In this document: one piece after another, positions 273-51,041 of the stretch
How the letters are laid out: each line of letters opens with the position of its first letter
How positions within the stretch are numbered: position 1 is the stretch's first letter
Source: an uncultured Bacteroidota bacterium
GTDB lineage: Bacteria > Bacteroidota > Bacteroidia > AKYH767-A > JABDAW01
Direction of reading: 5' to 3'
DNA: 58,516 nucleotides
NCBI GenBank assembly: GCA_903911135.1
Contig: CAIWCG010000194.1
Coordinates: 1-58,516, forward strand
Translations under genes and position numbers: made by a program
The notes under the pieces: generated by a model
Database searches by the model: none
Told to the model about the DNA's origin: nothing
Seen by the model: the letters and a program-made list of their open reading frames with translations, nothing else

Positions 273-403
273 TTCGAAGCTACCTGCCATCAAAGCATAG
301 CCCCGATAGTAGCGGCAGCCCGCTGCTTTGTGTCGGTAATGGGGATGCAGCGGCTACAGCGGATAGCGGGACGCAGATGGGACGAGAAGGAACCATAGGC
401 TCC
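273..403 (+). repeat. Conserved GC-rich ~130-nt intergenic element, copy E1 (possible structured RNA or MITE-like repeat)
   Basis: About 85-95% identical by eye to 31881-32011, 35652-35782 and the reverse complement of 35207-35338. Core is TTCGAAGCTACCTGCC..GATAGTAGCGGCAGCCCGCTGC..GCAGCGGCTACAGCGGATAGCGGGACG..ATAGGCTCC. An AT-rich AATTATAAAT tail follows. Confidence 0.85.
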
Positions 404-4276: not shown

Positions 4277-4631
4277 TGCTTTTATTTTTTATTAGGCTGT
4301 AAAAATACAATTAATAGTCGAGAGTGGGGGCATCTACCACTTGAAATCATTCATCAAGATAAATAAATCTTAGCCATTTTTGATGATTTTCAAGAGATAA
4401 AAATAAACCTTGGTTGGCATTGTCGATTAATTTTCGTTAATTAGCCTCGATGAAAAACCAACGACTGGCTTTCTTAAACACCAAAAACTCAAATGCGATC
4501 TCTGACAAGGATTTCACTTCCGCTATGGCAGTAAAATCTCTTGCATCATGCGTTTGAGCGGGCCTATATATAACAGTATAGACGGTTTTTTTGGCTGCGC
4601 AATGGAGAGTGGCTCAAAAATAAAGGGCTTT

Positions 4632-4841
4632 GCGGCCGATATAAAGGTCTTAGCGATGATGATAATGGTTATTGCGGCGATGATAATGGGCATTGCGTCC
4701 GATGCTAAGGTTATTGCGTCGAACGCTAAGGTCATTGCGTTGAATGCTAAGGTTATTGCGTCCGACGCTAAGGTTATTGCGTCCGACGCTAAGGTTATAG
4801 CGTCCGACGCTAAGGGCTTAGCGTCGGACGCTATAACCTTT
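4632..4841. repeat. 21-bp tandem array (array 2), 10 units
   Basis: Units begin every 21 bp from 4632. Consensus is GCGTCCGACGCTAAGGTTATT with palindrome GCGTC-C-GACGC. The left three units are degenerate. Confidence 0.9.
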
Positions 4842-4928
4842 ATTTTACGAATATTTCAGTTTGATAATCGTCTTAAAATGAATTTTATAACTACTAAATA
4901 ATACTTTTAACAATTAAAAATTAAAAAA

Positions 4929-5582
4929 ATGAATCAAGGACAAAAAATTAAAAAGTCACAGGTTACTGAAACCAAGGAAGACATTCAGGAATTGGCAGGC
5001 GTGGTTTTTCCAACGATGCAGTTGGATGGTCATGCAAATGTTTCGGCTGCTGGGGCAAACATTGAGGTGGATGATGGGCATTTAAGCGATGCCACTTCGG
5101 CAAAAAACAGTGCATTTACGGTGGCGGAAGCTGCTACGCAAACAGAAAAAAACAAGAAGAAATTGTTGGTGGACAGCATCAACAAGGGAGCTGATGCGGT
5201 GATGTTGTCTTATCCGAATAATCCTGATAAATGGAGCGAATTGGGCTTTCCATTGACCAAGGAAACGGTGGGTTCGGTAGGTGTTTGCGACCAAGTGGTG
5301 GGTCTTTCGATGGGGCAGGGAAATTTTCATGGCACCTGCGACATCGTACTGAAACCATGTGCCGGAGCCGAGGAATTTACCTTTAGAGTAACCAAGGATG
5401 ACCCTACGGTGGAGGCGGGATATATCGACATCAAGAATCCTTTGCTGTCGAAGACTTTGGATACCACCGTTCAGATTTTGCCTGATTATTTGAACAAGCC
5501 GTTGTTTTTTAAGGTTACGGGGCATAATACCCATGGGCCGGGTCCAGAATCCGATCCTTTTGGAGGAACGCCGATTTACTAA
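4929..5582 (+). CDS. Hypothetical protein with an FN3-like C-terminal domain (P217)
   Basis: 217 aa, no signal peptide. The C-terminus FTFRVTKDD..PLFFKVTGHNTHGPGPESDPF looks FN3-like. The A-rich leader AATTAAAAATTAAAAAAATG is shared with the 48782..49699 gene. Confidence 0.65.
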   Translation: MNQGQKIKKSQVTETKEDIQELAGVVFPTMQLDGHANVSAAGANIEVDDGHLSDATSAKNSAFTVAEAATQTEKNKKKLLVDSINKGADAVMLSYPNNPDKWSELGFPLTKETVGSVGVCDQVVGLSMGQGNFHGTCDIVLKPCAGAEEFTFRVTKDDPTVEAGYIDIKNPLLSKTLDTTVQILPDYLNKPLFFKVTGHNTHGPGPESDPFGGTPIY

Positions 5583-5660: not shown

Positions 5661-6782
5661 ATGGAACTGCAGTTTTATAAGACGCAGCAGACTACGGTCT
5701 TGTATTCGTCTGAATTGACGCTGATAAAAGTGGCCTTGCTGTTTGCTGAAAAGGTTAATGTGTTGAGCTTTAACTTTCAGCAAATACCGATGGCGGCAAA
5801 GATTGAAACGGGGTCGGAAAAACATACCATCATGTTCACCAAGATGGTTCATACAGAGCAAGGGACGCTGAAGGAAAGCCTGGATGTAGAGCTGTTTTAT
5901 AAAAACCTTCTGAAAATTCGGAACATGAAAAACAAACAGAAGGCCGACTTGATTCTTCTTGCCCGATTGGAGGCCATCTATAAATCCATACATAAGGATA
6001 TGGTTGCTTATATGCAGGAAATAATCAGCAAAAGCAAGCTGGAACTGTTCAAGGGTTTCGTGAAAGATGAATCGCTGAACATCATGCCTCATGGCTTCGA
6101 TTTGGAAAGCGAAATAGACCCCATCGGCCTCCGGATATTGAATTCCTTTCTTGATCCACTCGGTTTTCATCTGTTTGATGAGTCCATCATGAATAAAGCG
6201 GAAAGGGAGGATACAAGCGAAGAAATTACATTCGCGGATTTTACCGGCTACACGCTGGAATTGGACATCATGGAGGTTCCCAACCTCGATTCATTGGATT
6301 ATCAGCAATTGAAAATCATCAGAAATGAGTTCCTTTCCAAGTTCGAATCGTTCGGAAAGGCTGCAGAAGATTTTCAAAAGGAAATATCGGATACGCTATG
6401 GGTTGAGGAAAACCATGAGGGCTTAAAAGAACAATTATCAAAGCGTTTCAATACGAAGGCTGATGATTTATATACCGTTGGCGAAGAAAACATTTATTTT
6501 CAACAAATAAGAAACAGCGATGCCGACAAGCGAGTATCTACGCTAATGATTGGCCTTACTTCCATCCGTACTTTGGTGTTTTATTATTGGTATCAAAGAG
6601 TCATCACCATCGAAATGCGAACCTATATCATCAACGAAATTGAAAAACACAAAAGTGCAGATTCCTGTTCCTTGTTTTTTTATGTGGAAAGCGAAAGGGG
6701 AAGGGAAGAGCTTCAGCATTTTTGGGATGAGGCCGACAAGAAAAAAGAACTTCGCGAAGCTGACGAAGGCAGCAAGGAATAA
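5661..6782 (+). CDS. Hypothetical protein (orphan, mostly helical, acidic C-terminus)
   Basis: 373-aa ORF directly downstream of P217. I recognised no motif. The antisense 362-aa ORF has junk composition. Confidence 0.6.
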   Translation: MELQFYKTQQTTVLYSSELTLIKVALLFAEKVNVLSFNFQQIPMAAKIETGSEKHTIMFTKMVHTEQGTLKESLDVELFYKNLLKIRNMKNKQKADLILLARLEAIYKSIHKDMVAYMQEIISKSKLELFKGFVKDESLNIMPHGFDLESEIDPIGLRILNSFLDPLGFHLFDESIMNKAEREDTSEEITFADFTGYTLELDIMEVPNLDSLDYQQLKIIRNEFLSKFESFGKAAEDFQKEISDTLWVEENHEGLKEQLSKRFNTKADDLYTVGEENIYFQQIRNSDADKRVSTLMIGLTSIRTLVFYYWYQRVITIEMRTYIINEIEKHKSADSCSLFFYVESERGREELQHFWDEADKKKELREADEGSKE

Positions 6783-13654: not shown

Positions 13655-13941
13655 AAGCTAGAAATGCAACAAAATAAATAAAATCATCACATAAAACGGA
13701 GCAAGGCTAAATATCATTTTCCGACAACACTATTTTCTCATATATCATTGGGCAAAAGTACAATTAAAATCATTAACAATAACAAAAAATTCCCCAAAAG
13801 TAAAAGTTCAAAATATTTTACCCACCTTACAGTTTTATTTTCTGCTGAATATCCCCGTTTCTATTGGTCAGCTGCCACACATTCATCAAAAATATCAAAA
13901 AACAGATTATCATGAAATAATCGATATGTTAACAAAACCGT

Positions 13942-14118
13942 GTACTTTGAGTTCATGGGCGCGTACTTTGAGTTGCTTGGTACGTACTTTGAGTTGCTTG
14001 GTACGTACTTTGAGTTGCTTGGTGCGTACATTGAGTTCATGGGTACGTACTTTGAGTTGATGGGTAGGTACTTTGAGTTAATGGGCACGTACTTAGGCTT
14101 GCTTGGTGTGTACTTTGC
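13942..14118. repeat. 21-bp tandem array (array 3), about 8.4 units
   Basis: Consensus is GTACTTTGAGTTGCTTGGTAC. Unit junctions create the GTACGTAC palindrome. Lies upstream of the MBOAT operon. Confidence 0.9.
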
Positions 14119-17420: not shown

Positions 17421-17590
17421 AACTTATAAGTAATGTAACATAACTTATAAGTAACTGCCCCTAACTTATAAATAATGTTACTTAACTCATAAGTAACTGC
17501 CACTTACTTGTAAGTAACTGCCATAAATTCATAAATAACTGCCACAAACTTATGAGTAACTGCCATAAACTTGTAAGTAACTGCCATGGA
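17421..17590. repeat. 21-bp tandem array (array 4), about 8 units; degenerate traces reach about 17635
   Basis: Consensus is AACTTATAAGTAACTGCCATA with palindrome ACTTATAAGT. Lies upstream of ppk1. Confidence 0.9.
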
Positions 17591-17799
17591 TAGTATAGTA
17601 ATGTGTAAAGAAGGAATAGTAATTGCCACAAACCGTCTATTTCGGTAATTGAATCGTTTTATCTGATGATTATGACTAAATATTTCATTACGATATGTTC
17701 GATTATTGGCATCAAAAAACAAATCATAAAGACATTAAAAATGCCTTTAATGAAATCAATTATTGATGATGTTTGGAAATGATTTTATCTGAAACCGCA

Positions 17800-22501: not shown

Positions 22502-23746
22502 TTACTCCTTGATTATCTTTCCTCTAACGCTGGTTGGGATTTGCAATCCCGACCCTTTTACCTCATAAAAATAAATGCCACTTCTTAAATGCGAGATATC
22601 TATCGTCTCGGTGGCAGTGTTTAATGCTTGAGAATAAACCTTATTGCCCAACACATCGCTGATGATGATTTGCTGATTTGGGGAATAAGTATCTTGATGG
22701 ATAGTGATGGTGGAGGTGGTGGGGTTGGGGAAAATGGAAATAGTTTCTTTACTATTATTTACTTCACCTATTCCACTTGCTGAATTATAAAAAACCCATG
22801 CTGCTCCAAATCCATTACTATCATTTCTTCCTCCTTCAATAATCGTATGACCATCTGATGAGATTGCAACGCTCCATCCTTGGTATACACCATTACCACT
22901 ATTCACAGCTCCAGTTCCAATCAATTTACTTCCAAGTTGTGTCCAAATATTACTTGTTCTAGTGTAAATCCATACTGCACCAGTATTGCTATTGTCATTC
23001 AATCCACCAACAACTGCTGTATCTCCAGAATATGAAATTGAAACCGTATTACCTTGAGAAGAATTTCCTACAAAACCTGTACCTACCAATTTATTCCCTT
23101 GTTGTGTCCATACTCCTCCTGTTCGAGTATACATCCAAACTGCGCCAATACCACCACCATCCCCTTGCCCACCAATTATTGAAGTATTCCCATCTGAAGA
23201 AATAGCAACTGAATTACCTTGACCACTTCCAGCAGAGCTTGTACCAATAAGTTTATTTCCCTGCTGAGTCCAAACACCACTTGTTCGTGTAAATACCCAT
23301 GCTGCTCCTTCACTGTTATTATCTCCGCTACCACCAGATAGAATTGTATTTCCATCTGATGAAATTGAAATAGATGTACCTTGATGGGCAGCACCAATAG
23401 CACCTGATCCCACTAATTTATTTCCTTGTTGCGTCCAAATGCCACCACTACGAATAAATACCCATACAGCACCCATTCCACTGCTATCGCCCATACCTCC
23501 GACAATAGCTGTATTTCCATCAGCTGAAAGAGATACAGAGTAGCCTTGCCATGCAGAACCAATTGCGCCAGTACCTACTAATTTACTTCCTTGTTGAACC
23601 CAAACTCCAGAAGATCGAATGAAAACCCAAGCGGCACCAGTATAGCTGCTATCACCAAGTCCACCCTTTATCCGCTCCATTTTGCTAAGTGCTGGAAAAT
23701 ATTCTTTAAGGTTAAGGAAAATTTCTTTAAGGTTAAAGTGCTGCAC
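22502..23746 (-). CDS. Repeat-rich T9SS cargo protein, probably 5'-truncated (no signal peptide)
   Basis: About 47-aa repeats (GA.WVF.RSGGVWTQQGNKLVGTGA..QG.SVS.S.DGNT.IVGG.GD) plus a T9SS CTD (ISIFPNPTTSTITI..GIYFYEV). The ORF begins in the middle of a repeat, and its first ~15 codons lie inside array 5. Confidence 0.65.
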   Translation of the reverse strand: MQHFNLKEIFLNLKEYFPALSKMERIKGGLGDSSYTGAAWVFIRSSGVWVQQGSKLVGTGAIGSAWQGYSVSLSADGNTAIVGGMGDSSGMGAVWVFIRSGGIWTQQGNKLVGSGAIGAAHQGTSISISSDGNTILSGGSGDNNSEGAAWVFTRTSGVWTQQGNKLIGTSSAGSGQGNSVAISSDGNTSIIGGQGDGGGIGAVWMYTRTGGVWTQQGNKLVGTGFVGNSSQGNTVSISYSGDTAVVGGLNDNSNTGAVWIYTRTSNIWTQLGSKLIGTGAVNSGNGVYQGWSVAISSDGHTIIEGGRNDSNGFGAAWVFYNSASGIGEVNNSKETISIFPNPTTSTITIHQDTYSPNQQIIISDVLGNKVYSQALNTATETIDISHLRSGIYFYEVKGSGLQIPTSVRGKIIKE

Positions 23747-23894
23747 TTTAACCTTAAGGATTATTTCTTTAAGCCTAATAATTATTCCATTTAGGTTAAG
23801 AAATATTCCATTAAGGTTAGGAATTATTCCAATAAAGTTAAGAATTATTCCAATAAGCCTAAAGAAAATTCCATTAAGACTAAAGAAATATTTC
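23702..23894. repeat. 21-bp tandem array (array 5), about 9 units
   Basis: The right-hand five units are exactly 21 bp (for example ATTAAGGTTAGGAATTATTCC) and contain the palindrome GGAAT-T-ATTCC. Left units are more degenerate. Confidence 0.85.
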
Positions 23895-24052
23895 TGAACC
23901 TTCGGGAAGGTTTTAGCTTATAAATGGACTAAAAAATGCCTTTTCAGGGGTTTAAAAGGCAGGTTTTGGAAAGAAAATCCAATAAAAATTTGTTGGTTAC
24001 AATTATAATTTTGCTAAATTTGCCCCTTAACAACTAAATACCCCAAAAAATT

Positions 24053-24724
24053 ATGTTACCTTATTCGATTACCATCATCCTGTACAACATTTTCCTGTCC
24101 TTCTTTGTACCGTATGTTACCATCTCGGCGAACAGAACTCGCCTTGGATTAATTGACACCCAAACTGGCCAACTCGGAACTTATTGGACAACTTGGCAAA
24201 CTACCTTTGCGGCCTATTTGAATCCTGCAACTTATGGCACGGTAAATACCGGGGCCATGAATGATTTTTATGCCATCGTGTCGGAATATGTAGTGGGCAT
24301 TCAGCAACAAATCAAGAATAATCCAACCGTTACGTTGACGACTTTGGATTATATCATTTTGGTCATTCACAAAAATTTGGCAGGTCGTCATCCACATCCC
24401 ATTCCAGCAGAAGAGTCCGGTATGGCAGTAAAAAACAACCGCCATCTGAACACCGAATTTGTGGTCTTTGATTTGGCAGCACCAACTCATGCCGCAAAAC
24501 CTAAGTATGTTGAAAGAATCACTCCTTTCATTCTTTACAAAGCTCATGGTTCTCCTGCCCCTGTTGATGGTGATTTGATTGAACAAACCGATGTAACTCG
24601 AATGACTTTTGATGTGCCACATACTACGGCGCAAATAGGCATGGATGGTTATGCGCAAGTTTGTTTTACCAACGATGCCGGACAAGGCATTCGGTCAGCC
24701 ATCATTCCATTTTCTGTTATTTAA
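24053..24724 (+). CDS. Hypothetical protein with an FN3-like C-terminus (P223)
   Basis: 223 aa. Preceded by a TAAATTTG -7 box about 30 nt upstream. The C-terminus MDGYAQVCFTNDAGQGIRSAIIPFSVI resembles an FN3 last strand. Confidence 0.6.
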   Translation: MLPYSITIILYNIFLSFFVPYVTISANRTRLGLIDTQTGQLGTYWTTWQTTFAAYLNPATYGTVNTGAMNDFYAIVSEYVVGIQQQIKNNPTVTLTTLDYIILVIHKNLAGRHPHPIPAEESGMAVKNNRHLNTEFVVFDLAAPTHAAKPKYVERITPFILYKAHGSPAPVDGDLIEQTDVTRMTFDVPHTTAQIGMDGYAQVCFTNDAGQGIRSAIIPFSVI

Positions 24725-24749
24725 TAGCTAAAAAGGAAATCAAAAAAAA

Positions 24750-24780
24750 GCCGCTGCATTAAAATGTAGCGGCTTTTTTT
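24750..24780. terminator. Bidirectional rho-independent terminator
   Basis: Hairpin GCCGCTGCA-TTAAAA-TGTAGCGGC has an A-run on the left and a T-run on the right. It lies between convergent genes. Confidence 0.85.
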
Positions 24781-24853
24781 ATTGTTTCCTGATGATGTTC
24801 TTATAATTGCTTCGCTATAGGCGAGCCATCATAAGAACATCAAACTTATGGCT

Positions 24854-31441: not shown

Positions 31442-31729
31442 GTTAGGTTTCAACTGTAACGTGACGGTATTGGACTCTGTTGCCACGAACTTGGGTTTCG
31501 TTCGAACGAACTCCAGGTTTGTTGCCAACAGTTGGAGGTTTCAGACCAAGTTAGAGCATTTTGTTGCCTTGGAAACCAGTTTCGTTCGAACGAACTCCGG
31601 CTGTGTTGGAACGAACCCAAAACCTGTCGCGACAATGTTCCAGCGTACGCGACAAACCCCGGCACCGTCGCAACAGAATCCAACTTCGTTCCAACGAAAC
31701 CCAAGTTCGTTGGAACAGAGTTGAACTTC
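31442..31729. repeat. About 21-bp tandem array (array 6), 13-14 units, with overall dyad symmetry
   Basis: Units start with palindromes GTTCGAAC, GTCGCGAC or GTTGCCAAC. The right arm (about 31667-31729) is close to the reverse complement of the left arm (about 31476-31530). Confidence 0.85.
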
Positions 31730-31880
31730 AAGGCAAGGTATTTTGAGGTATTTTAAACGGAATTGGAGCGTATTGAAAGAATTAATGGATTGGTGACGAT
31801 GGGATAATGGCAATTGGCATTTTGTTATTTTTATTGGCATGAGCCTTTTCGCCGCAGCCAGGTATTATTCAAAAAGTTGT

Positions 31881-32011
31881 TTCGAAGCTACCTGCCATCA
31901 AAGCATAGCCCCGATAGCAGCGGCAGCCCGCTGCTTGGTGTCGGTATTGGGGATGCAGCGGCTACAGCGGATAGAGGGACGTAGATGGGACGAGAAGAAA
32001 CCGTAGGCTCC
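31881..32011 (+). repeat. Conserved ~130-nt element, copy E2
   Basis: Same core as E1. The tail is AAAAAATTAGGAATTAGGGATT and abuts the next gene. Confidence 0.85.
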
Positions 32012-32103
32012 AAAAAATTAGGAATTAGGGATTTTTCATGTTTCTTTTAGATGGAAATAGTACCTTTGCAGCCTTAACACGGATTAATAACAACAAAAAA
32101 AAT

Positions 32104-34223: not shown

Positions 34224-35183
34224 ATGACAAACAAGAACTTTTTACTCATAGATACCATACATCCCCTGTTTGTTCAAGGCTTGCTGAAGCTTGGATATAA
34301 CTTGGTGGATGGTACCCTCTGGACGAATGAAAAGGTATTGGATGAGCTTCCTACTTTCACCGGCATATTGGTGAGGAGCAAAATAACTTTGGATGAAAAC
34401 TTCTTCCATAAAGCCACGAATTTGAAATTCATTGCAAGAGCCGGTGCAGGCATCGAGCATATTGACATCAACGAAGCCAAGAAAAGAAACATCCACCTGA
34501 TTACTGCCCCAGAAGGCAACCGAAATGCTGTTGCCGAACATGCGCTTGGCATGCTGCTGAACCTGATGAACAACCTGAACAAGGCCGACCGTGAAATTCG
34601 TGAAGGGAAATGGCTAAGAGAAGACAACAGGGGTACCGAAATTCATGGCAAAACCATCGGCATCATCGGGTTTGGAAACACCGGCCAGAGCTTCGCCAAG
34701 AAATTCATCGGCTTCGAAACGCCAGTCATCGCCTACGACAAATATGTCGAGGTAAATGCCAGCCACGTCACCTCCGTTTCCATGGAGCAGCTCTTCGAAC
34801 AGGCCGACATCGTCAGTTTCCACATCCCCCTCACCACGGAAACGAATGATCTCGTCAACGATGAATTCTTGAGTTCATTCAAGAAAAATAGCTACCTCAT
34901 CAACACCTCCAGAGGCAAGATTCTGAACACAAAAGCCCTCGTCAAGCATATGAAATCAGGCAAGATTCTTGGTGCAGCCCTCGATGTAATCGAATACGAA
35001 AACCAAAGTTTCGAGTCGCAAGCCAGCATAGCCGACCAAGAAACCTACGGCTATCTGCTGGCCAGTCCACGCGTACTCCTCACGCCACACATAGCAGGAT
35101 GGACGCACGAATCCTATCGTTTAATAGCCGAAGTGCTCCTCGAAAAAATCGCCAACCTTGCCCTCCCTCCCCTCCCTCCCTAA
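34224..35183 (+). CDS. D-isomer-specific 2-hydroxyacid dehydrogenase (phosphoglycerate dehydrogenase-like)
   Basis: 319 aa. NAD motif GIIGFGNTGQ and catalytic region LTPHIAGWT. Confidence 0.9.
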   Translation: MTNKNFLLIDTIHPLFVQGLLKLGYNLVDGTLWTNEKVLDELPTFTGILVRSKITLDENFFHKATNLKFIARAGAGIEHIDINEAKKRNIHLITAPEGNRNAVAEHALGMLLNLMNNLNKADREIREGKWLREDNRGTEIHGKTIGIIGFGNTGQSFAKKFIGFETPVIAYDKYVEVNASHVTSVSMEQLFEQADIVSFHIPLTTETNDLVNDEFLSSFKKNSYLINTSRGKILNTKALVKHMKSGKILGAALDVIEYENQSFESQASIADQETYGYLLASPRVLLTPHIAGWTHESYRLIAEVLLEKIANLALPPLPP

Positions 35184-35206
35184 TTTCTAATTCCTAATTC
35201 TTTTAA

Positions 35207-35338
35207 GGAGCCTATATCCTCCACACGTATCAAGGTGCGTCCCGCTATCCGCTGTAGCCGCTGCCTGCCCATTTCCGACACAAAGCAGCGGGCTGCCGCT
35301 ACTATCGGGGCTATGCTCTGACGGCAGGTAGCTTCGAA
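35207..35338 (-). repeat. Conserved ~130-nt element, copy E4 (inverted orientation)
   Basis: Its reverse complement matches the E1-E3 core. The segment between GGGACG and ATAGGCTCC is replaced. The tail is AATTAGGAATTAGAAATTA. Confidence 0.85.
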
Positions 35339-35420
35339 ACAACTTTTGGCAAAACGGACCATTTTCAAGGTGAAATTCTTTCATGCCGTTTAAAAAACAC
35401 TTATTTCCGGTTTCCGACCT

Positions 35421-35614
35421 ATATGACGGACGATGCGGCTTATATCACGGACGATGCGGATGATATGACGGACGATGCGGATGATATGACGGACGATGCG
35501 GATGATAGTACGGACGATGCGGATGATAGTGCGGACGATGCGGATGATAGCACGGACGATGCGGATGATAGCACGGACGATGCGGCTTATATCACGGATG
35601 ATCCGTCTTATAGG
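35421..35614. repeat. 21-bp tandem array (array 7), about 9 units
   Basis: Consensus is TATGACGGACGATGCGGATGA. The first and last units carry GCGGCTTATATCACGG variants. The last unit has the palindrome CGGAT-G-ATCCG. Confidence 0.9.
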
Positions 35615-35651
35615 TAGAAACGACTGTTTTTTAATTTCGGCTGAAAGTTTA

Positions 35652-35782
35652 TTCGAAGCTACCTGCCGTCAAAGCATAGCCCCGATAGTAGCGGCAGCCC
35701 GCTGCTTTGTTTCGGAAATGAGGAGGCAGCGGCTACAGCGGATAGCGGGACGAAGATGGGACGAGAGGAGGATATAGGCTCC
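35652..35782 (+). repeat. Conserved ~130-nt element, copy E3
   Basis: Same core as E1, with the same AATTATAAAT-type tail. Confidence 0.85.
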
Positions 35783-35840
35783 ATTTAGAAATTATAAATT
35801 ATGGATTATAAATTATGAATGGGGGAGGACGAGGAGGGAT

Positions 35841-38508: not shown

Positions 38509-39258
38509 CTAATAATAATAAAAAGCATTCGGCGCTCGCTTATAAAGCGGCAATATCCAGCCAAAGGTAACCCCATAAAGAATATCAAACCGCTTGGTAT
38601 TATCCTTAAGCCCCGTTTCAAAGTTCACAGGACGGCGATTTTCGGTAAAACCCTCCAGTATTTCAAACCCGATATAGAAATTCATCAGATGCCTGTTCCC
38701 AAGATGCATGTAACCCACCGATTGAGACAACGCAAGCCCATTCGTCATCCTGTCATAACCCGCCGCATAGACACCATCCACCTGCGGAACATTCTTGTTC
38801 TCATCATAAATGGAAATCTTATGCTCCAAAAAGCCCACACCACCCAACACATAAATCCCACTGTTCGGGTTCGGACCCATAACCGGAAACAGCTTGCCAA
38901 AATCCACCATCACATCAAACCCACGCTCATACAATATCACATTGCCATACTGCCCATTATCACCAAGCAGGTTTCCATCAGGCGTAGTGATGTTGCTCAT
39001 GATGCCCACCTCCCTCACATCATTCCCAAACAGATAAGAACCACGTATGCCGAAGAGATAATTCCCCTTCGTCTTAAACCGATAGCCGATACCCACCTCC
39101 GAATTCCACCCAAACCTATCCGCCATGTTCCCACCAGGAAAATCAGCACTATAATGCACCGAAACCAACGACATCCGCAGCGAAGAATCACGAATGCTCC
39201 CCTGCCCAAAACTAACATTCAGCCACAACAGCAACCCGACAACAAAAATTTTACGCAT
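38509..39258 (-). CDS. Outer-membrane beta-barrel hypothetical protein
   Basis: I trimmed the track ORF to the ATG at 39258 (MRKIFVVGLLLWLNVSFGQG signal peptide). The longer version would run antisense through tRNA-Cys. Aromatic C-terminus ..NAFYYY. Confidence 0.7.
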   Translation of the reverse strand: MRKIFVVGLLLWLNVSFGQGSIRDSSLRMSLVSVHYSADFPGGNMADRFGWNSEVGIGYRFKTKGNYLFGIRGSYLFGNDVREVGIMSNITTPDGNLLGDNGQYGNVILYERGFDVMVDFGKLFPVMGPNPNSGIYVLGGVGFLEHKISIYDENKNVPQVDGVYAAGYDRMTNGLALSQSVGYMHLGNRHLMNFYIGFEILEGFTENRRPVNFETGLKDNTKRFDILYGVTFGWILPLYKRAPNAFYYY

Positions 39259-39419
39259 ACCACTCATCATCTTAAAAATAATCAAAACCATAACGAACCC
39301 AAGCCACAAATGTTTTTTACCACCCCCCACCACCATCAAAATTCTCCGCCACAAAAGTAGCGAAAAACCCATGCAGCATAAAATTACCCCCAAATTTTTC
39401 CCTTTCAAAAATAAATTAT

Positions 39420-39427
39420 TACTTTTG
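39420..39427 (+). promoter_or_regulatory. Bacteroidota -7 promoter box (TAnnTTTG) for tRNA-Cys
   Basis: TACTTTTG ends 18 nt before the tRNA 5' end. Confidence 0.4.
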
Positions 39428-39445
39428 CGCCCCTTGCTCATGTAA

Positions 39446-39516
39446 GGTCGCGTGGCCGAGCGGCTAGGCAGAGGTCTGCAAAACCTCGTACAGCAGTTCG
39501 AATCTGCTCGCGACCT
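39446..39516 (+). tRNA. tRNA-Cys (GCA)
   Basis: Hand-folded cloverleaf. Acceptor stem GGTCGCG/CGCGACC; anticodon stem GAGGT/ACCTC with loop CTGCAAA (anticodon at 39478-39480); T-arm AGCAG-TTCGAAT-CTGCT. CCA is not encoded. Confidence 0.9.
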
Positions 39517-39550
39517 CGAAAATTGTTTCAGTCGGAGACATTTCGAGTAC

Positions 39551-39580
39551 ACAAAGCCCCCTACATTCAGGGGGCTTTGT
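39551..39580. terminator. Stem-loop, probable terminator between tRNA-Cys and the convergent SDR gene
   Basis: ACAAAGCCCCC-TACATTCA-GGGGGCTTTGT. The T-tract is weak. Confidence 0.5.
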
Positions 39581-42618: not shown

Positions 42619-42644
42619 GTCTCCCCAACATCTGTCGGAGAGAC
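42619..42644 (-). terminator. Rho-independent terminator (minus strand), probably the ancestral terminator of the 113-aa gene
   Basis: Minus-strand hairpin GTCTCTCC-(10 nt)-GGGGAGAC followed by TTATTGTTTTATT. Confidence 0.65.
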
Positions 42645-42670
42645 TTTCATGAATCTTTACCTCTTCCCTC

Positions 42671-42815
42671 CTACGGCACCGGACTATCTATATAAGTCAT
42701 GAATCCTTCACCACAAGTTTTCAAGGGGTCGGCGATGACGAACTTGGTGGAGGGGAGGATGTGCAAGGTCTCCTTGCTTTCGGAGTGTTCTTTGCAGAGG
42801 GGGAGGATGTATATG
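42671..42815 (-). pseudogene. Start-less 3' fragment, a displaced copy of the C-terminal ~48 codons of the 48109..48450 gene
   Basis: 42642-42815 aligns with 48081-48258 at roughly 90% identity by eye, including identical runs of 34 and 48 bp. There is no upstream coding continuation. Confidence 0.8.
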
Positions 42816-42854
42816 GTCAGGTCTTTGGGTCTGGATATTTTATCTAAACAATAT

Positions 42855-42975
42855 TTGAGGATACCATTAAACCCTACTTCTCTTATGCCAGAAAACCTGT
42901 GGCAATCTGGATTTCTAATTGGATAATAGTTGATTGGAGGATATGAAAATCCTTAATAGTTTATCCACAGGATGT
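42855..42975 (-). repeat. Cassette-junction repeat R1 (hairpin part conserved, promoter part degenerate)
   Basis: ..CATTAAACCCTACTTCTCTTATGCCAGAAAACCTGTGGCAATCTGG..AATTGGATAATAGTTGATTGGAGGA.. aligns with R2-R4. Confidence 0.75.
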
Positions 42976-44427: not shown

Positions 44428-44500
44428 TGCAAAGATACACATTAAACCCCACTTCTCTAATGCCGGAAAACCGGTGACAAGATGGGGTGTTAATGGAATT
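44428..44500 (-). repeat. Cassette-junction repeat R2
   Basis: TGCAAAGATACACATTAAACCCCACTTCTCTAATGCCGGAAAACCGGTGACAAGATGGGGTGTTAATGG. It overlaps the HEPN stop codon. On the minus strand it supplies TATCTTTG 15 nt before the next ATG. Confidence 0.85.
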
Positions 44501-45225: not shown

Positions 45226-45345
45226 TGCAAAGATACACATTAAACCCTACTTCTCTAATGCCGGAAAACCGGTGACAAGATGGGGGGTTAATTGGATTAT
45301 TGGTGATTGGAGGAAATATAAGTCCTTAGTTTATCAACCTATAAG
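45226..45345 (-). repeat. Cassette-junction repeat R3
   Basis: Same sequence as R2, plus the extension AATTGGATTATTGGTGATTGGAGGAAATATAAGTCCTTAGTTTATCAAC shared with R1. Confidence 0.85.
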
Positions 45346-45792: not shown

Positions 45793-45880
45793 TGCAAAGA
45801 TACACATTAATCCCTACTTCTCTAATGCCAGAAAACCGATGGCAAGCTGGGGTGTTGATTGGATTATTGGGGATTGTAAG
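45793..45880 (-). repeat. Cassette-junction repeat R4
   Basis: TGCAAAGATACACATTAATCCCTACTTCTCTAATGCCAGAAAACCGATGGCAAGCTGGGGTGTTGATTGGATTATTGG. It overlaps the last codons of the HNH-like gene. Confidence 0.85.
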
Positions 45881-46543
45881 AATTAGATTTTCTTTTACAC
45901 ATTTCAAAAGCTGTGAAGAACTGATTAACTGCAAATTCTTCATAAGGTTTATCTGTCAATTTAGTTTGCTCTATAATCGGTTGTATTATACCCTTTCTAT
46001 TTGCAATGATTGTTGGGTGATTAATTCCTAAAGTTTCAAGCATTTTAGTAACTCTTTCTTTATCATTTGGCGACAAATCGGGATTTGGGATAAAAATATG
46101 TTCCTTTTCATAATAGAAGAGTAATCTAAACTCATCATATTCAGGCTCATCAGGTTTAAGTATGTAATCAACCTCTTTTCTCCCCTTAACTTTAGCAGAA
46201 TTAACATCGGAATGAATCATAAATAAATTAGACCATAACCAAGCTTTACTTGCTTTTAAGTTAGGATCAAAATGATCTAATTCACCAAATGATTTATCTT
46301 CTCCTTCAAAACAATAACATCCATCTTTCCAATTTAATGTTTCATAAAATATCTCATCACATAATAAAGATTCTGTGTAAGCACAAACACCTTTTTGGCA
46401 ATAGAATAGACTCATCACAACATCTTTGTAAAACTTGTTGTTGATGAATTATATACTCCATGATTTCTATCATCATTTTCAAGTACTTCTTCCCAAGATT
46501 TGTATTGAGTAGATTGAACAACAGACTTATCAATTTTCCTCAT
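45864..46543 (-). pseudogene. ptuB: PtuB-like HNH (TIGR02646-type) nuclease gene, apparently split by a frameshift near 46415-46425
   Basis: The 184-aa ORF (45864..46418) has CAYTE, ELDHFDP, WSNLF and a LETLGINHPTIIANRKG-type tail. A 42-aa ORF (46415..46543) starts 3 nt after the ATPase stop and reads like the missing N-terminus, but in another frame. Confidence 0.55.
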
Positions 46544-46546
46544 TTA

Positions 46547-47911
46547 TTACCAAACATCATAATTAATTTTACCAGTATCCCATCCTATTTTTTCAGCGAG
46601 TTTTTTATAATCATTCCATGTTTTGTCAATCAAGTCTTTATCAGCTTTTTCAATTTTCAGTTTCTTTAATTTCTCTTCTAACTGAGCCAATTCAACTAGT
46701 TTAGGAGTTCTTTCCTTGCTATTGCCATCAGGTAGAAAATCATAAACCTTCTGATAAATTGTATCCCATCGCATATATCTTGGGTCAATAAAATAATTAT
46801 CAACATGATTCTCGCCCCTGTAATATTTATCTCTTAAAATATATCCATCTTGATTGAACTTCAATTCTGCAATTTCCCAAGGTTCAAAACATGATAGTAT
46901 AAAAGCAGAATGTGTTGCGAAAAAGAATTGTGAATTCTTAGCCAATGAAGTATATATTTCAATAATCTCCGCTTGAATATCAGGATAAAGAGAGCGTTCT
47001 GGTTCATCAAAGAAAATACCACAATTATTAGGTTTAAGATAATATAATGGGATTGCAGAAATTATTATTTGTTTTGTTCCTGTACTTAATGAATCAAAAG
47101 GTATTATTTCATTCGTATGTACATTCTGAATCTGTAAATTCAAATCATTAACATCCTCCAATTCTGTTTTAGTTTTTAAATGGAATTTATTCAGAATTGG
47201 ATCAAGACAATTCTGTGCTAAATCACTAACTGGGTTTGGATTTTCTTTTAACCAATTCTGATATTCATTTTTTAACTCATCAGAGTTTTCCTTCATTATT
47301 TTTTTAGAAATCTCAATTCTGAAGTTTGTTTCTTTTATCCTATATTGTTGAACTTGAATAAGTGCGATGTCCAAGGCTCTTCTAGCATCTTGAATATTAA
47401 AAAAGTAAAAAATAGATTCCATAAATATTCCCCCACTGGGTATATCATTTTGTTTTTCAGCAGGGTAACTCAAAACACTTATATCGAGTTTTGTCCGAAT
47501 TCCTCGAAAATGTTCTAAAGCTTGCTTCACTGTCATTTGTATAGAATCAACAATGATGTTATCAATAATTGCTACTTGGTTATTTTCAATTACAAAATCA
47601 TAAGATATTCGATAATTATCAGTAAATGAAAGGCGTATATATGCTCCTTTGGGTAATTGTATATTAAAACTTTCTAAATATAAAGTAGGATTAAATTTAT
47701 CAGTATGGGCAATAAAATTGTAATCAAATTTACAATGAAATCCTAATTGTATCAACTTCAGCAATGTAGTTTTACCAGTCCCGCTTTGTCCAATAAAACA
47801 AACTTTATCCAATGGCTGTCCTTCCTTTGGATGTCCCTGTGGATAGGTTAAGTCAAGAGTAAAATCCTTGAATTGATAAAAATTCTTGAGTTCTATTTTC
47901 TTCAGTTTCAT
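46547..47911 (-). CDS. ptuA: PtuA-like ABC/AAA_15-type ATPase (Septu-like)
   Basis: 454 aa. Walker A GQSGTGKTT, signature-like LSTGTKQ, Walker B IFFDEPERSL, H-loop FFATHS. Confidence 0.6.
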   Translation of the reverse strand: MKLKKIELKNFYQFKDFTLDLTYPQGHPKEGQPLDKVCFIGQSGTGKTTLLKLIQLGFHCKFDYNFIAHTDKFNPTLYLESFNIQLPKGAYIRLSFTDNYRISYDFVIENNQVAIIDNIIVDSIQMTVKQALEHFRGIRTKLDISVLSYPAEKQNDIPSGGIFMESIFYFFNIQDARRALDIALIQVQQYRIKETNFRIEISKKIMKENSDELKNEYQNWLKENPNPVSDLAQNCLDPILNKFHLKTKTELEDVNDLNLQIQNVHTNEIIPFDSLSTGTKQIIISAIPLYYLKPNNCGIFFDEPERSLYPDIQAEIIEIYTSLAKNSQFFFATHSAFILSCFEPWEIAELKFNQDGYILRDKYYRGENHVDNYFIDPRYMRWDTIYQKVYDFLPDGNSKERTPKLVELAQLEEKLKKLKIEKADKDLIDKTWNDYKKLAEKIGWDTGKINYDVW

Positions 47912-48108
47912 TTTAACGTATTTACTATTATAAGATTCGCAAAACTAACAAAATTTATCCATAAAATTTATAGCATTTTTTATCTTTGAAGATACTGGTG
48001 CAATTTATAAGGCATGCTTTTGACTCTAAAATCTGAAAACATTTTTAAACCAATAATCAATATTATATCAATTTCAAATGACTTTCTTAAATCTTTACTC
48101 ATTCCTCC

Positions 48109-48450
48109 CTACAGCACCGGACTATCCACATAAGTCATGAATCCTTCGCCACAAGTTTTCTTGATGTCGGCGATGACGAACTTGGTGGAGGGGAGGATGT
48201 TCAAGGTCTCCTTGCTTTCGGAGTGTTCTTTGCAGAGGGGGAGGATGTAGATGGTGGAATCTATGGGTTTGGTTTGCAAATCCAAACCATCCAGTTTATG
48301 AACATGCGTCCCTACGATGTCCACCTTGCCACATCCTGCCACCACGCAGCCTGTTATCTGGCGGAAGCTGAAGTTCTTGTAATGCTGAAACCAGTTGCCG
48401 CATCTACAATTCTTTTCTGTCGGCTTACTGCTGATTTTTACTTCTATCAT
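48109..48450 (-). CDS. Small Cys/His-rich protein, possibly a zinc-binding HNH-like fold
   Basis: 113 aa. Has CRCGNW..H, GCVVAGCG, VGTHVH and ILPLCKEHSE. Its 3' third is duplicated at 42671-42815. Confidence 0.6.
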   Translation of the reverse strand: MIEVKISSKPTEKNCRCGNWFQHYKNFSFRQITGCVVAGCGKVDIVGTHVHKLDGLDLQTKPIDSTIYILPLCKEHSESKETLNILPSTKFVIADIKKTCGEGFMTYVDSPVL

Positions 48451-48522
48451 TGTGTTTATTTTTATTATTGTTTCTCATTTTGTTAATCCCTTTTTATGCT
48501 TGATTATGCCTTTTTGACAAAG

Positions 48523-48761
48523 TTTGAAGGAATCTTTACATTCCTTCAAACAATGTCAACATTGTTTGAAGAAGTCCTTACATTCCTTCAAGGTATGTGA
48601 ACATTGTTTGAAGAAGTCCTTGCATTCCTTCAAGGTATGTAAACATTGTTTGAAGAAGTCCTTGCATTCCTTCAAGGTATGTAAACATTGTTTGAAGAAG
48701 TCTTGACATTCCTTCAAACAATGTCAACATAGTTTGAAGATATCCTTACATCCCTTCAAAG
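48523..48761. repeat. 42-bp tandem array (array 8), about 5.7 units
   Basis: Units start at 48523, 48565, 48607, 48649, 48691 and 48733. TTGAAG..CTTCAA and AAACA-T-TGTTT inverted repeats. The terminal units differ from the three inner units. Confidence 0.9.
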
Positions 48762-48781
48762 TTTCGTCTTTTAGCTAATTT

Positions 48782-50564: not shown

Positions 50565-51041
50565 ACGGCAAAGATAGATAATGACCAATTATTTAACAGG
50601 TATTCAGTATTTATGAGGAAGGAAATCAGTAATGGATAGATAAATGTACCCATTTGTGGCATATTCAAGATATTCTTTGTTTGTGATAGACATTTAAAGC
50701 TTAATGTCATCATGGATAATGATTTCCGATTTGGAATCTCAAACAGCAAATTATTTAACCTAATAAAGGATTTATCGCTCCTTAATTTCATCGAGTCACC
50801 GATGGCAAAAATCCATTATTAGCAAAGCTTTCAATGTTGCTTCTTAGTTCAGGGAATGTTAAATGTTTGCATAATCCCAATAAAAATGAAGAAAACATGA
50901 AAAACATGACGTGGGTCATAGGAGTGCAGTAGTCATCCCATTAATATTGCAACCTTAATACCAAGAACCAAAACAACATATCAACTTAAAGGGGAAGCTG
51001 AAAACCGCATAGAGTAAGCAACAATTAAACAACATAAAAAC

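Follow-up and report, generated by a model that had tools for sequence, protein, structure and literature searches.

The closest described counterparts of the arrays reported here are the iterons of theta plasmids and lambdoid phage origins and the centromeres of partition systems. Iterons are direct repeats of 17-22 bp, set about two helical turns apart, and every replicon has an iteron sequence of its own; proteins bind them cooperatively along a single helical face, an AT-rich stretch adjoins them, and some (the lambda origin iterons, for example) are internally dyad-symmetric. The sopC centromere of F consists of 12 copies of a 43-bp unit, and the units of sopC and of R1 parC, which span about four (or one to two) turns, each contain an inverted repeat as the binding site of a dimer and give rise to a wrapped nucleoprotein complex. 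Neisseria intergenic mosaic elements (NIMEs) and those MITEs that have a tandem-repeat core are intergenic and bounded by inverted repeats, with conserved arms around the repetitive core.

We analyzed a 58,516-nucleotide stretch of DNA from an uncultured Bacteroidota bacterium (the whole contig CAIWCG010000194.1 of assembly GCA_903911135.1), hereafter the window, and found that it carries chromosomal intergenic minisatellites of a class specific to this lineage. Each is a head-to-tail run of 8-14 copies of its own 21-bp unit or 42-bp double unit, which amounts to two or four turns of B-DNA, and a dyad-symmetric core is present in most units. Like iterons, these are direct repeats at a spacing of about two turns (here 21 or 42 bp), and AT-rich spacers follow array A2 and the array of the related locus L088. 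Unlike iterons, which occur in 3-7 copies, the arrays have 8-14 copies and number at least eight in 58 kb of chromosome, no initiator (Rep-like) gene lies nearby, and the ORFan genes beside them combine a helical hairpin with an Fn3 domain rather than encoding a winged helix. The 42-bp arrays A1, A8, and L084, with their dyads, recall partition centromeres, from which the locus differs in that no parA, parB, or parR was found among the flanking genes and in that many unrelated arrays share one chromosome.

Resemblance to other repeat classes is also partial. REP, BIME, and REPIN elements, which are mobilized by RAYT, and REPs tagged with GTAG or CGTC consist of 20-40-bp palindromic units located between genes, sometimes in tandem clusters and often after gene ends, but each REP family has one genome-wide sequence, whereas here the unit is private to each array and the period is fixed. 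REP dimers are oriented head to head or tail to tail (PMC3733652). The repeat that we call FL, described below, resembles REP-type elements in being dispersed and in forming inverted pairs; the 58-kb window contains no RAYT (Y1 transposase) gene. Composites of the form FL(-)-array-FL(+), which occur at A7, L082, and L084, are reminiscent of NIMEs and MITEs, except that the core differs from copy to copy and that the arms are set apart from it by nonconserved DNA, each having seemingly arrived on its own. VNTRs and contingency loci are likewise tandem repeats in promoter-proximal intergenic DNA, but the arrays described here do not vary in copy number between strains, and a two-turn unit would leave promoter phasing unchanged. 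CRISPRs, too, are palindromic repeats at regular spacing at which assemblies break; as an earlier reading of the window from its letters (the sequence-only reading) had concluded, they are excluded because spacers are absent, the units being contiguous head to tail, and no cas genes were seen.

That reading had listed eight arrays, and all eight held up. Seven were called by TRF, and the eighth, A6, has a clear 21-bp autocorrelation (0.48, 0.37, and 0.33 at lags of 21, 42, and 63, respectively; the highest value among 500 shuffles was 0.36), which identifies it as a genuine though degenerate 21-bp array. Counting TRF arrays with a score of at least 100 and a period of at least 10, we found that all seven nonoverlapping arrays in the window had a period of 21, 42, or 63. 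Multiples of 21 accounted for 15 of 15 arrays in the window and close relatives versus 2 of 23 in 1.3 Mb of more distant Bacteroidota (Fisher p = 9e-9). Thus, the proposal that a constant period with varying sequence marks a real constraint is borne out, and the constraint is confined to this lineage. The density of arrays, which had been described as unusual, is indeed high, at 7-8 per 58.5 kb versus about 1 per 50-60 kb at other Bacteroidota loci.

Outside this lineage the picture changes. Arrays in more distant relatives have periods of 32-34 bp, which correspond to nonintegral helical turns, and two-copy 21-bp duplications are present in the somewhat more distant relatives L010, L013, and L021. 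Among the 15 arrays of the window and close relatives there were no 20- or 22-bp arrays and no decayed ones, and young arrays of 3-6 copies were not seen in the lineage. A3 and A4 are missing beside ppk/ppx in L001, and array positions are not conserved between genera; arrays are missing at orthologous positions in a relative with 78% PPK identity and wholly missing in relatives at 56-65%. As far as we could find, neither the strict 21/42-bp length rule nor the Flavo-1 repeat beside some of the arrays has been described before, and our literature search for 21-bp intergenic arrays in Bacteroidetes, or for tandem repeats tied to helical turns, returned nothing relevant.

The individual arrays, whose coordinates carry no strand, differ in build. 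A1 (1-210; TRF 1-176, 4.2 copies) consists of about five copies of a 42-bp unit truncated by the contig start and contains an 18-bp imperfect dyad centered on AACGTT; its autocorrelation of 0.79 at lag 42, with no 21-bp subperiod, marks it as a true 42-mer. A2 (4617-4846; TRF 4620-4833) has about 10 copies of a 21-bp unit with the dyad TTAGCGTC-C-GACGCTAA, its termini are 10-bp inverted repeats (AAAATAAAGG / CCTTTATTTT), and its final units make a 23-pair hairpin (4791-4840) followed by a T-run. About eight copies of the 21-bp unit GTACTTTGAGTTGCTTGGTAC, G+T-rich on the plus strand, make up A3 (13941-14118; TRF 13942-14117), which lies 67 bp beyond the ppx stop codon and 48-224 bp 5' of the first TAnnTTTG box of an MBOAT gene. 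A4 (17421-17601; TRF), with about eight copies of the 21-bp unit AACTTATAAGTAACTGCCACT, sits between the end of lptG and the start of ppk, and A5 (23697-23892; TRF) has 9.3 copies of a 21-bp unit with the dyad GGAAT-T-ATTCC. The degenerate array A6 (31442-31734), detected by autocorrelation and missed by TRF, has about 14 copies of 21-bp units with dyads of the type TTCGTTnnAACGAA, and its termini are mutually inverted copies (52 nt, 81%). A7 (35421-35609; TRF 35421-35602) has about nine copies of the nonpalindromic 21-bp unit ATATCACGGACGATGCGGATG and inverted end sequences (14 nt, 1 mismatch). Finally, A8 (48522-48762; TRF), located 72 bp 5' of o48109 and 20 bp beyond the o48782 stop codon, has 5.7 copies of a 42-bp unit that combines two hairpin-like dyads, TTGAAGGAAT...ATTCCTTCAA and AAACA-T-TGTTT.

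The unit sequences proved as unrelated as the sequence-only reading had held, with a mean best circular match of 9.91/21 versus 9.88/21 for shuffled units. No short motif or homology above chance was common to the units of the 17 arrays that we collected, no two of which were recognizably similar, and self-BLAST of the window returned no further copies of array units, each array being single-copy. Palindromes had been claimed for nearly all arrays, and the claim stood largely as made for A1, A2, A4, A5, A6, and A8; it needs qualification for A3, where GTACGTAC arises solely at junctions of units ending in GGTAC, and for A7, where the sole palindrome, TGATATCA, occurs in a few units. Dyads of at least 8-9 bp were present in about 10 of the 17 arrays versus a chance expectation of about 10%, and roughly one-third of the lineage's arrays (A7, L001, L083, L090b, and L091) had none, a point that had been overlooked. 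Where dyads occur, they run continuously through the center with no loop (GTACGTAC, ACTTATAAGT, TTCGTTCGAACGAA, TACAGCTGTA, and CCATAGACGTCTATGG), which is a requirement of symmetric recognition of duplex DNA and not of a hairpin. Inverted array ends were present in L003 (28 bp, perfect), A2, A5, A6, and A7 and missing in A3, A4, L001, L090b, and L091.

Maps of ORFs and Pfam domains placed every array in intergenic DNA, as originally described. The further claim was that the arrays mostly occupy 5' or divergent-promoter regions; the context proved mixed, with A2, A5, and A6 between divergent genes, A3, A4, and A8 between same-direction genes, and A7 between convergent genes. Where a Bacteroidetes -7 box (TAnnTTTG) was found (A3, A4, and A5), the array lies about 50-400 bp 5' of it. 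The neighbors of the arrays include the helical-hairpin and Fn3 ORFans, ppk/ppx, the MBOAT gene, and an outer-membrane protein gene, among others. No cognate DNA-binding gene was found beside any array by Pfam, PHROGs, or the structures of neighboring genes, and the window contains no transposase, reverse transcriptase, or nuclease gene.

We compared the arrays between strains and found no copy-number variation at 0.2-5% divergence (A2, A3-A5, A6, and A8). A3 to A5 are identical in L081, A2 and A6 have unchanged lengths in a sister strain (where A6 is 99.0% identical), and A8 has 5.7 copies versus 5.8 in L098. Since copy number is equal across strains, we conclude that the arrays are not hypervariable. 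This stability had gone unremarked in the sequence-only reading. In two strains, the right halves of the A2 orthologues are 64% identical (36% changed) with zero indels, and where one strain has the dyad TTAGCGTC-C-GACGCTAA, the other has CATTACGTC-G-GACGTAATG, a rebuilding that includes a double change of G-C to A-T and two pair-creating changes. A5 is 99.5% identical in two genomes although its own units are just ~73% alike; it differs at 1/196 bp versus 41/318 bp in the noncoding flanks (p = 2e-8) and 16/224 third codon positions of the adjoining gene (p = 3e-4). Part of this strong conservation could stem from mosaic recombination, a process clearly at work at these loci.

Some arrays are accompanied by a dispersed repeat of about 165 bp, FL, which contains the Rfam Flavo-1 motif (RF01705) and was absent from the sequence-only reading. 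Copies, four of them in the window and further ones in relatives, are 83-93% alike. One, at 265-440 on the plus strand (Flavo-1 at 295-377, 52.5 bits; found by Rfam, self-BLAST, and nhmmer), points away from A1 and has a run of TTATAAA heptamers at its outer end. Another, at 31873-32033 on the plus strand (Flavo-1 at 31903-31985), points away from A6; its Rfam score of 41.8 bits is just below the gathering score of 42, and it reaches 95.8 bits under our own covariance model. The other two, both identified by Rfam and self-BLAST, form the left arm (35177-35346, minus strand; Flavo-1 at 35234-35316) and right arm (35644-35820, plus strand; Flavo-1 at 35674-35756) of the composite at A7. Three of the four window copies (55.1, 52.5, and 51.9 bits) score above the gathering threshold.

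All 10 independent FL copies lie beside arrays, at distances of 20-203 bp, and all of them point outward (p = 0.001). Two FL arms that flank one array are no more similar than unrelated copies are, and we therefore conclude that each arm reached an already present array on its own. FL is lacking at five of the eight window arrays, and the DNA between FL and the arrays is unrelated. Across 80 PPK loci of other Bacteroidota, FL/Flavo-1 was found in just L012 and L013, as variants of their own and not beside 21-bp arrays, and neither FL nor the o4929 gene family described below had a match in viral contigs, phage records, or plasmid records.

Three arrays lie directly 5' of small ORFan genes, a feature that had likewise been overlooked. 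The gene o4929 (4929-5582, plus strand, 217 aa) is located 95 bp 3' of A2, and its predicted structure (pLDDT 93) joins an N-terminal helical hairpin to a C-terminal Fn3 domain; its family comprises about 80 representative clusters of 205-224 aa. It is a distant homologue of the gene at 265-924 of L088 (hhalign 91%, E = 1e-6), with which it shares this fold, and the arrays upstream of these two genes have nothing in common but their period. The gene o24053 (24053-24724, plus strand, 223 aa) lies 160 bp 3' of A5, and 16 of its 25 differences fall at codon position 3, a bias that indicates purifying selection. The C-terminus of o24053 looks Fn3-like and is suggestively similar to the o4929 family, but the tie is not significant.

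Together with its array, o24053 belongs to a 1.19-kb unit (23657-24842, plus strand) that comprises A5, the gene, an intrinsic terminator, and a second hairpin. In a sister genome, this unit occupies another chromosomal site, in a different gene context, and is 94.5% identical (L090-L095). The hairpin of about 50 nt at its right edge (24793-24842, no strand assigned) is common to the window, to L088, which has another array-plus-gene unit at the same site, and to L090, which has the same unit at another site. Thus, two different units occupy one site, and one unit is found at different sites in two genomes. We considered this hairpin as a general boundary of such units and rejected it as one, as it is missing at other arrays.

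We propose, tentatively, that the arrays are phased protein-binding or architectural elements that work as double-stranded DNA. Among the ideas put forward in the sequence-only reading, same-face binding by dimeric proteins appears to fit best, by an indirect argument; for templated duplication we obtained no direct evidence. Each unit would offer one binding site in double-stranded DNA, and the two-turn spacing would align the proteins on neighboring units, probably dimers, along the same side of the helix, where a cooperative nucleoprotein filament or wrap could form, as at plasmid iterons, sopC/parC centromeres, and tandem operator arrays. The complex would then act as an architectural or regulatory element 5' of promoters and at gene boundaries, notably beside accessory ORFan genes. 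Period and symmetry would be kept because function requires them, and the sequence would be free to turn over or to coevolve with its binding partner. A bound or structured array may also serve as a landmark at which FL settles, mirror-symmetrically on either side. The anatomy of the arrays, their period rule, their stability between strains, the register kept during turnover, and the association with FL are direct observations. Binding is suggested by the exact period, the loopless dyads, the retained register, the constraint on the A5 sequence, the stable copy number, and the location of arrays 5' of -7 boxes, by strand-independent, two-fold symmetric behavior (divergent, tandem, and convergent contexts; inverted terminal units; outward-pointing FL) and by the lack of any RNA property or reading frame common to all arrays.

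Other explanations account for parts of this evidence. Binding would demand, given the private sequences, either many private proteins or one structure-reading protein; no DNA-binding gene is a neighbor, about one-third of the arrays are dyad-less, predicted curvature is unremarkable, more distant relatives have 32-34-bp arrays, and positional nonconservation between genera is unusual for regulators of housekeeping genes. Curvature itself, one of the first candidates, fared poorly in a wedge model, in which the arrays were no more curved than arrays of column-shuffled units (end-to-end ratios at percentiles 0.09-0.80, an approximate test). The arrays could alternatively be a selfish or neutral minisatellite family, in which an ancestral 21-bp array spread, partly with ORFan genes, and concerted evolution erased the similarity; the period would then persist because substitution and in-register homogenization never alter unit length, and neither function nor ruler would be needed. 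We regard this as possible, if somewhat doubtful. Eukaryotic satellite families keep monomer length in a similar way, and the idea accommodates the homologous genes o4929 and L088 265-924 with upstream arrays that match in period alone, A2 orthologues 36% diverged yet in register, units at differing sites and differing units at one site, arrays missing from orthologous positions (78% PPK relative) and from the 56-65% relatives, and the association with a MITE-like repeat. It is harder to reconcile with 17 arrays no two of which are recognizably similar, so that no recent spread is seen; with the 0/15 tally of 20-bp, 22-bp, or decayed arrays that unselected indels should yield; with A5 and A6 being better conserved than noncoding flanks; with stable copy number; or with the majority of arrays (A1, A3, A4, A6, A7, and A8) not lying beside the homologous gene family. 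A generating mechanism with a molecular ruler, which would write 21-bp duplications at arbitrary sites for unequal exchange to expand, seems unlikely to us. Candidate rulers are an enzyme tied to FL/Flavo-1 and fixed-length replication or repair slippage seeded at palindromes, and template switching at quasi-palindromes can perfect dyads without selection. The restriction of the period rule to one lineage, the 10/10 FL copies adjoining arrays, and the two-copy 21-bp duplications in L010, L013, and L021 would fit such a ruler; the 20-203 bp of unrelated DNA separating FL from arrays, the FL-less state of 5/8 window arrays, the independent arrival of FL arms beside an existing array, the window's want of a transposase, reverse transcriptase, or nuclease gene, and the unseen young 3-6-copy arrays all speak against it, and we know of no bacterial mechanism that makes 21-bp duplications.

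An RNA role is about as improbable as a ruler. The arrays might be noncoding RNA genes or UTR elements, with tandem hairpins that, like CsrB/RsmZ, bind an RNA-binding protein or keep it sequestered or, like REP elements, shield the ends of mRNAs. Eight of them (A2, A5, A6, A8, L003, L082, L084, and L088) do fold far better than shuffles (z of -5 to -18), a long hairpin and then a T-run ends A2 and L082, a perfect 28-nt inverted repeat and then a T-run closes L003 on the minus strand, and A3, A4, A7, and A8 lie shortly 3' of a gene end. However, A7, L001, and L083 have the same period, yet neither of their strands folds better than shuffles, the dyads are perfect through the center, where a hairpin loop would be free, every orientation context occurs together with the mirror-symmetric FL arrangement, whereas RNA genes are polar, nothing at the RNA level would make unrelated sequences prefer exactly 21 nt, and no Rfam family matched the arrays. 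A fold common to all arrays was tried with minimum-free-energy z-scores on both strands and rejected, since three arrays lacked structure and several had it on just one strand. We consider it very improbable that the arrays encode small proteins with 7- or 14-residue repeats, for which 21 bp would be seven codons. Open frames run through A2 (117 aa), A3 (44 aa), A5 (71 aa), and A6 (100 aa), some of them called by public gene callers, but any stop-free 21-bp unit keeps a frame open across its array by construction, variation between units has no consistent third-position excess, protein divergence in the A2 frame equals DNA divergence between strains, and stop codons interrupt all six frames of A4 and A8, which largely refutes coding heptad repeats. 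The chance that the arrays are artefacts of short-read metagenome assembly is negligible, although contigs do break at arrays and FL copies: six independent assemblies (ENA, JGI, and Logan) agree on an A5-type array of 9.3 copies, A3-A5 are identical in L081 and A8 is the same in L098, and unit-specific variants within arrays are impossible from k-mer looping. A broader idea, which we hold to be rather unlikely, is that a lineage factor, whether a chromatin-like or architectural complex or a ruler-type enzyme, reads or writes the 21-bp period irrespective of sequence and maintains the private arrays, with Flavo-1 in a mobile element that homes to arrays and array-plus-gene units that move as cassettes.

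If the period rule reflects function, the arrays would be a natural DNA element defined by geometry (two helical turns) and not by sequence, and would point to an unknown DNA-organizing protein in this uncultured Bacteroidota group. If they are merely selfish DNA, they would still offer a clean case of bacterial satellite-like evolution in which length is kept and sequence replaced. In practical terms, short-read assemblies break at arrays and FL copies, as at the window start, the L088 start and end, and the L099 end, so that long arrays have probably been collapsed or lost, and gene callers place spurious ORFs over them. In Flavobacterium, Flavo-1 occurs outside transcripts as well as in sense or antisense orientation relative to them (PMC9723704). 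Our results provide this orphan Rfam family with a first consistent genomic context, beside arrays, outward-facing, and often in inverted pairs, which argues that Flavo-1 is not a small-RNA gene but a DNA element of mobile or REP-like type.

A sequence-only reading of the window (58,516 bp, one entire MAG contig) had claimed eight arrays with a 21- or 42-bp period, and TRF called seven of them where that reading had placed them (A1, 1-210; A2, 4617-4846; A3, 13941-14118; A4, 17421-17601; A5, 23697-23892; A7, 35421-35609; and A8, 48522-48762). The eighth, A6 (31442-31729), fell under the TRF threshold and was recovered by autocorrelation, with values of 0.48, 0.37, and 0.33 at lags of 21, 42, and 63 bp, respectively, against a maximum of 0.36 in 500 shuffles; its units carry variable dyads (two-fold symmetric cores) of the type TTCGTTnnAACGAA. 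All seven non-overlapping window arrays with a TRF score of at least 100 had periods of 21, 42, or 63 bp, and clean units were visible once the arrays were printed in register. The units are as unrelated in sequence as had been claimed, with a mean best circular match of 9.91 of 21 versus 9.88 for shuffled units. The palindromes that had been described were mostly right, A7 having only a weak one; about 10 of all 17 arrays that we collected contain a dyad of at least 8 to 9 bp, compared to a chance expectation of ~10%. Composition was strongly skewed in the non-palindromic arrays (A3, A7, and, in comparison loci, L001, L083, L090 16968-17190, and L091), which are G+T- or G+A-rich on one strand, and the arrays seem to fall into two structural classes that obey one period rule. 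An intergenic location was borne out for all window arrays, although in mixed settings: divergent gene pairs flank A2, A5, and A6, same-direction genes flank A3, A4, and A8, convergent genes flank A7, and A1 lies at the contig end. Where -7 boxes of the Bacteroidetes type (TAnnTTTG) are present, they lie downstream of the arrays, thus placing A3, A4, and A5 ~50 to 400 bp upstream of core promoters.

We examined the period rule across relatives in a partial census, by running TRF on all of the sequence collected and counting arrays with a score of at least 100. The window genes, including several for T9SS Por_Secre_tail proteins, mark an uncultured member of the Bacteroidota; polyphosphate kinase (PPK) identity is 78% for the nearest species representative (L001) and ~60% for the next ones. 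Periods were multiples of 21 bp for 7/7 arrays in the window (58.5 kb), 8/8 in close relatives (64.5 kb), 2/8 in relatives at ~60% PPK identity (395 kb), and 0/15 in more distant loci (903 kb; Fisher test on these counts, p = 9e-9). Since several close-relative loci were picked because they flank arrays or FL, a ~165-bp dispersed repeat, array density there is biased upward, while the periods are unbiased. The excess at 21 and 42 bp, on which the earlier claim had been staked, was upheld within the census, and three loci at 57 to 73% MgtE identity contained no arrays. Two loci at ~61 to 62% PPK identity contain related arrays of 32 to 34 bp (L012 155-294 and 1355-1420; L015 7541-7873), two of them in inverted orientation in L015, possibly an analogous system that uses another period. 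L012 and L013 also have their own Flavo-1 variants.

Agreement among independent assemblies rules out an assembly artifact. Over 22 kb, an independent ENA assembly differed from the window by a single mismatch and carried arrays A3 to A5 unchanged, and the same A5-type array of 9.3 copies occurs in six assemblies (ENA, JGI, and Logan). The strain comparison that had been proposed to reveal copy-number variation found none, as the copy number of A8 was equal in locus L098 and the lengths of A2 and A6 were equal in the sister strain; the arrays are not hypervariable. Given that contig ends tend to fall at arrays or at the flanking FL repeat, long arrays are probably under-sampled.

The sister genome (GCA_037134775.1, together with matching ENA and JGI contigs) is ~2% divergent overall. 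Between strains, A6 is 99.0% identical and its neighbors 95 to 98%, and the left part of A2 (4621-4696) is 100% identical. The right part of A2 (4697-4833) and the spacer from A2 to the next gene are 64% and 68% identical, respectively, both with zero gaps, and unit number and register are preserved. The dyad has been rebuilt from TTAGCGTC-C-GACGCTAA to CATTACGTC-G-GACGTAATG, including one G-C to A-T double change. Two blocks, 4697-4928 (the right half of A2 and the promoter region of gene o4929) and 5661-6480 (the initial two-thirds of ORFan o5661, 373 aa), are 64 to 75% identical or unalignable between strains that otherwise are 95 to 100% identical, which suggests allelic replacement or diversifying evolution.

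A5 belongs to a 1.19-kb unit (23657-24842) consisting of the array, gene o24053, a terminator, and a hairpin, and this unit occurs in the sister genome in a different gene neighborhood (L090 7109-8294). The two copies of the array are 99.5% identical (1 difference in 196 bp), compared to 86% for the array-gene spacer, 87% for the 3' hairpins, and 96.3% for o24053, where 16/25 differences fall at codon position 3. Compared to A5, both the non-coding flanks (p = 2e-8) and third codon positions (p = 3e-4) are significantly less conserved, although these loci are recombination mosaics and the contrast between segments could be inflated. The units of A5 are only ~73% alike among themselves, so this conservation does not stem from intra-array homogenization; there is sequence-level constraint on at least one array. 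At A5's window site, the sister strain has another array-plus-gene unit, in which a 219-aa gene follows an array of GGAACGAAGTCTGTTCCAGCA x 9 (L088 1-1045), and the same ~50-nt hairpin (24793-24842) terminates both units.

Several arrays are accompanied by FL, which starts with AAAGTTnnTTCGAAGCTACCTGCC and ends on its outer side in 7-bp AT-rich repeats. Its core is Flavo-1 (RF01705): Rfam matches at 295-377 (+), 35234-35316 (-), and 35674-35756 (+), and a fourth at 31903-31985 (+) that scored 41.8 bits, slightly below the threshold of 42, each form the core of one FL copy (265-440, 35177-35346, 35644-35820, and 31873-32033, respectively; 83 to 93% mutual similarity). These copies lie 34 to 140 bp from A1, A6, and A7 and are all oriented outward, with A7 bracketed by an inverted pair that takes up all of the space separating two convergent genes. 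When JGI metagenomes were scanned with an FL pattern, only three contigs were returned, and in all three FL adjoins 21- or 42-bp arrays: FL(-), 21 bp x 11.2, FL(+) in L082; FL(-), 42 bp x 7.5, FL(+) in L084; and 21-bp arrays followed by FL(+) in L083. With one further case in L091, 10/10 independent FL copies have an array at a distance of 20 to 203 bp and point away from it (p = 0.001). Since the FL arms around one array are no more similar to each other than unrelated copies are, and the spacer DNA between FL and array is unconserved, FL copies appear to have arrived independently beside arrays already there. Sister-strain contigs end at FL, whose behavior resembles that of a MITE or REP-like DNA element more than that of a small-RNA gene. 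In the literature, Flavo-1 is listed only as a predicted Bacteroidetes RNA (PMC2864571); in Flavobacterium psychrophilum, some of its matches are sense to transcripts, others antisense, and others outside transcripts, and they offer no functional clue (PMC9723704), a placement that fits a repeat element.

Coding repeats were rejected, given stops in all frames of A4 and A8 and no codon-position signal. Curvature, a candidate of the sequence-only reading, was not supported: predicted end-to-end ratios were within the distribution of column-shuffled arrays, in a test whose wedge parameters make it approximate. Eight arrays folded far better than shuffles on both strands, as follows from palindromic sequence, while A7, L001, and L083 folded no better than shuffles on either strand. 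A1, A3, L090b (an array in L090), and L091 were structured on one strand only, which is G+T-rich in the latter three, and A4 was more strongly structured on the minus strand. Terminator-like hairpins close A2 and the L082 array, and a 28-bp perfect inverted repeat closes that of L003; some arrays may therefore also be transcribed.

We also considered the genes adjoining three arrays. Gene o4929 (4929-5582) begins 95 bp past A2 and belongs to an ORFan family (~215 aa; about 80 representative clusters of 205 to 224 aa in public data) with no evident signal peptide; its AlphaFold model is confident (pLDDT 93) and shows a long helical hairpin at the N terminus and an Fn3 domain at the C terminus. 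The family also includes, as a distant member, the 219-aa protein encoded after the L088 array (L088 265-924; hhalign 91%, E = 1e-6), such that homologous genes have upstream arrays with only the period in common. For the product of o24053 (24053-24724, 223 aa), encoded past A5, the alignment is co-linear across the Fn3 part, although not significant (E = 0.008). None of the three proteins looks DNA-binding.

What is common to all arrays is geometry, with a period of exactly two or four helical turns. Arrays span ~180 to 310 bp in total, and both their units and their ends are often two-fold symmetric. Their behavior does not depend on strand, FL flanking is mirror-symmetric, and the register is kept while the sequence turns over. 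Iterons, centromere arrays, and tandem operators offer same-face sites on duplex DNA for cooperative binding, and the features of the arrays fit an element that would likewise act as duplex DNA with its sites on one helix face. We advance this reading only tentatively, because no binding protein was in sight at the array neighborhoods, a third of the arrays are without dyads, and array positions are not conserved between genera. The main rival, which we consider possible but rather doubtful, is satellite-like evolution, in which all arrays would go back to one 21-bp ancestor and would have spread in part along with the Fn3 genes: unit length would be kept since substitution and in-register homogenization cannot alter it, and homologous genes do adjoin unrelated arrays. 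However, 20- and 22-bp arrays are wholly absent and A5 is conserved, pointing to some constraint on top of such evolution. A ruler-type generating mechanism seems quite unlikely, and we give no more credence to a role of the arrays as RNA, given that no RNA property was found to be common to all of them, while the period is. Conceivably, a factor that recognizes the period whatever the sequence underlies the arrays.

The arrays are of a known kind, bacterial intergenic repeat arrays, although the searchable literature yielded no description of private intergenic arrays strictly bound to 21 bp, or of their association with Flavo-1. Their geometry resembles that of iterons and centromere arrays, their location and palindromy recall REP/BIME and NIME clusters, and the FL-array-FL composites resemble MITEs with a tandem-repeat core. 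Yet defining features of known systems are missing: the initiator or partition genes of iterons and centromere arrays, the genome-wide common unit of REP-type families, the copy-number variability of VNTRs, and the spacers of CRISPRs, whose absence agrees with the earlier claim that these are not CRISPRs.

Elsewhere in the window, a 75- to 110-bp module that looks like a promoter, comprising a GCCACCGGTTTTCCGGCA hairpin and a -7 box of sequence TATCTTTG, is repeated at 42860-42968, 44428-44500, 45226-45338, and 45793-45885, upstream of several minus-strand small operons, including a HEPN/nucleotidyltransferase pair. The Cys-rich gene o48109 (113 aa) has a duplicated 3' part, the two copies being 88% identical (42642-42834 and 48080-48272). 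In the sister strain, position 45871 is joined directly to an o48109-like gene (window segment 45871-48098), so the segment with an AAA_15/AbiEii-like ATPase (46547-47911) is a strain-specific insertion or deletion in a defense-like island. The longest-ORF call for a 347-aa gene (38509-39552) overlaps an opposite-strand tRNA-Cys (39446-39517), and its true start is therefore probably further downstream. A DUF805b RNA motif at 50988-51020 is a sub-threshold match (28.4 bits versus a gathering score of 35.6). From about 50600 to 58516, a very large gene (4829 aa in L098) with Gly-rich GGT repeats and internal 200- to 800-bp repeats runs off the contig, which ends within the repeats.
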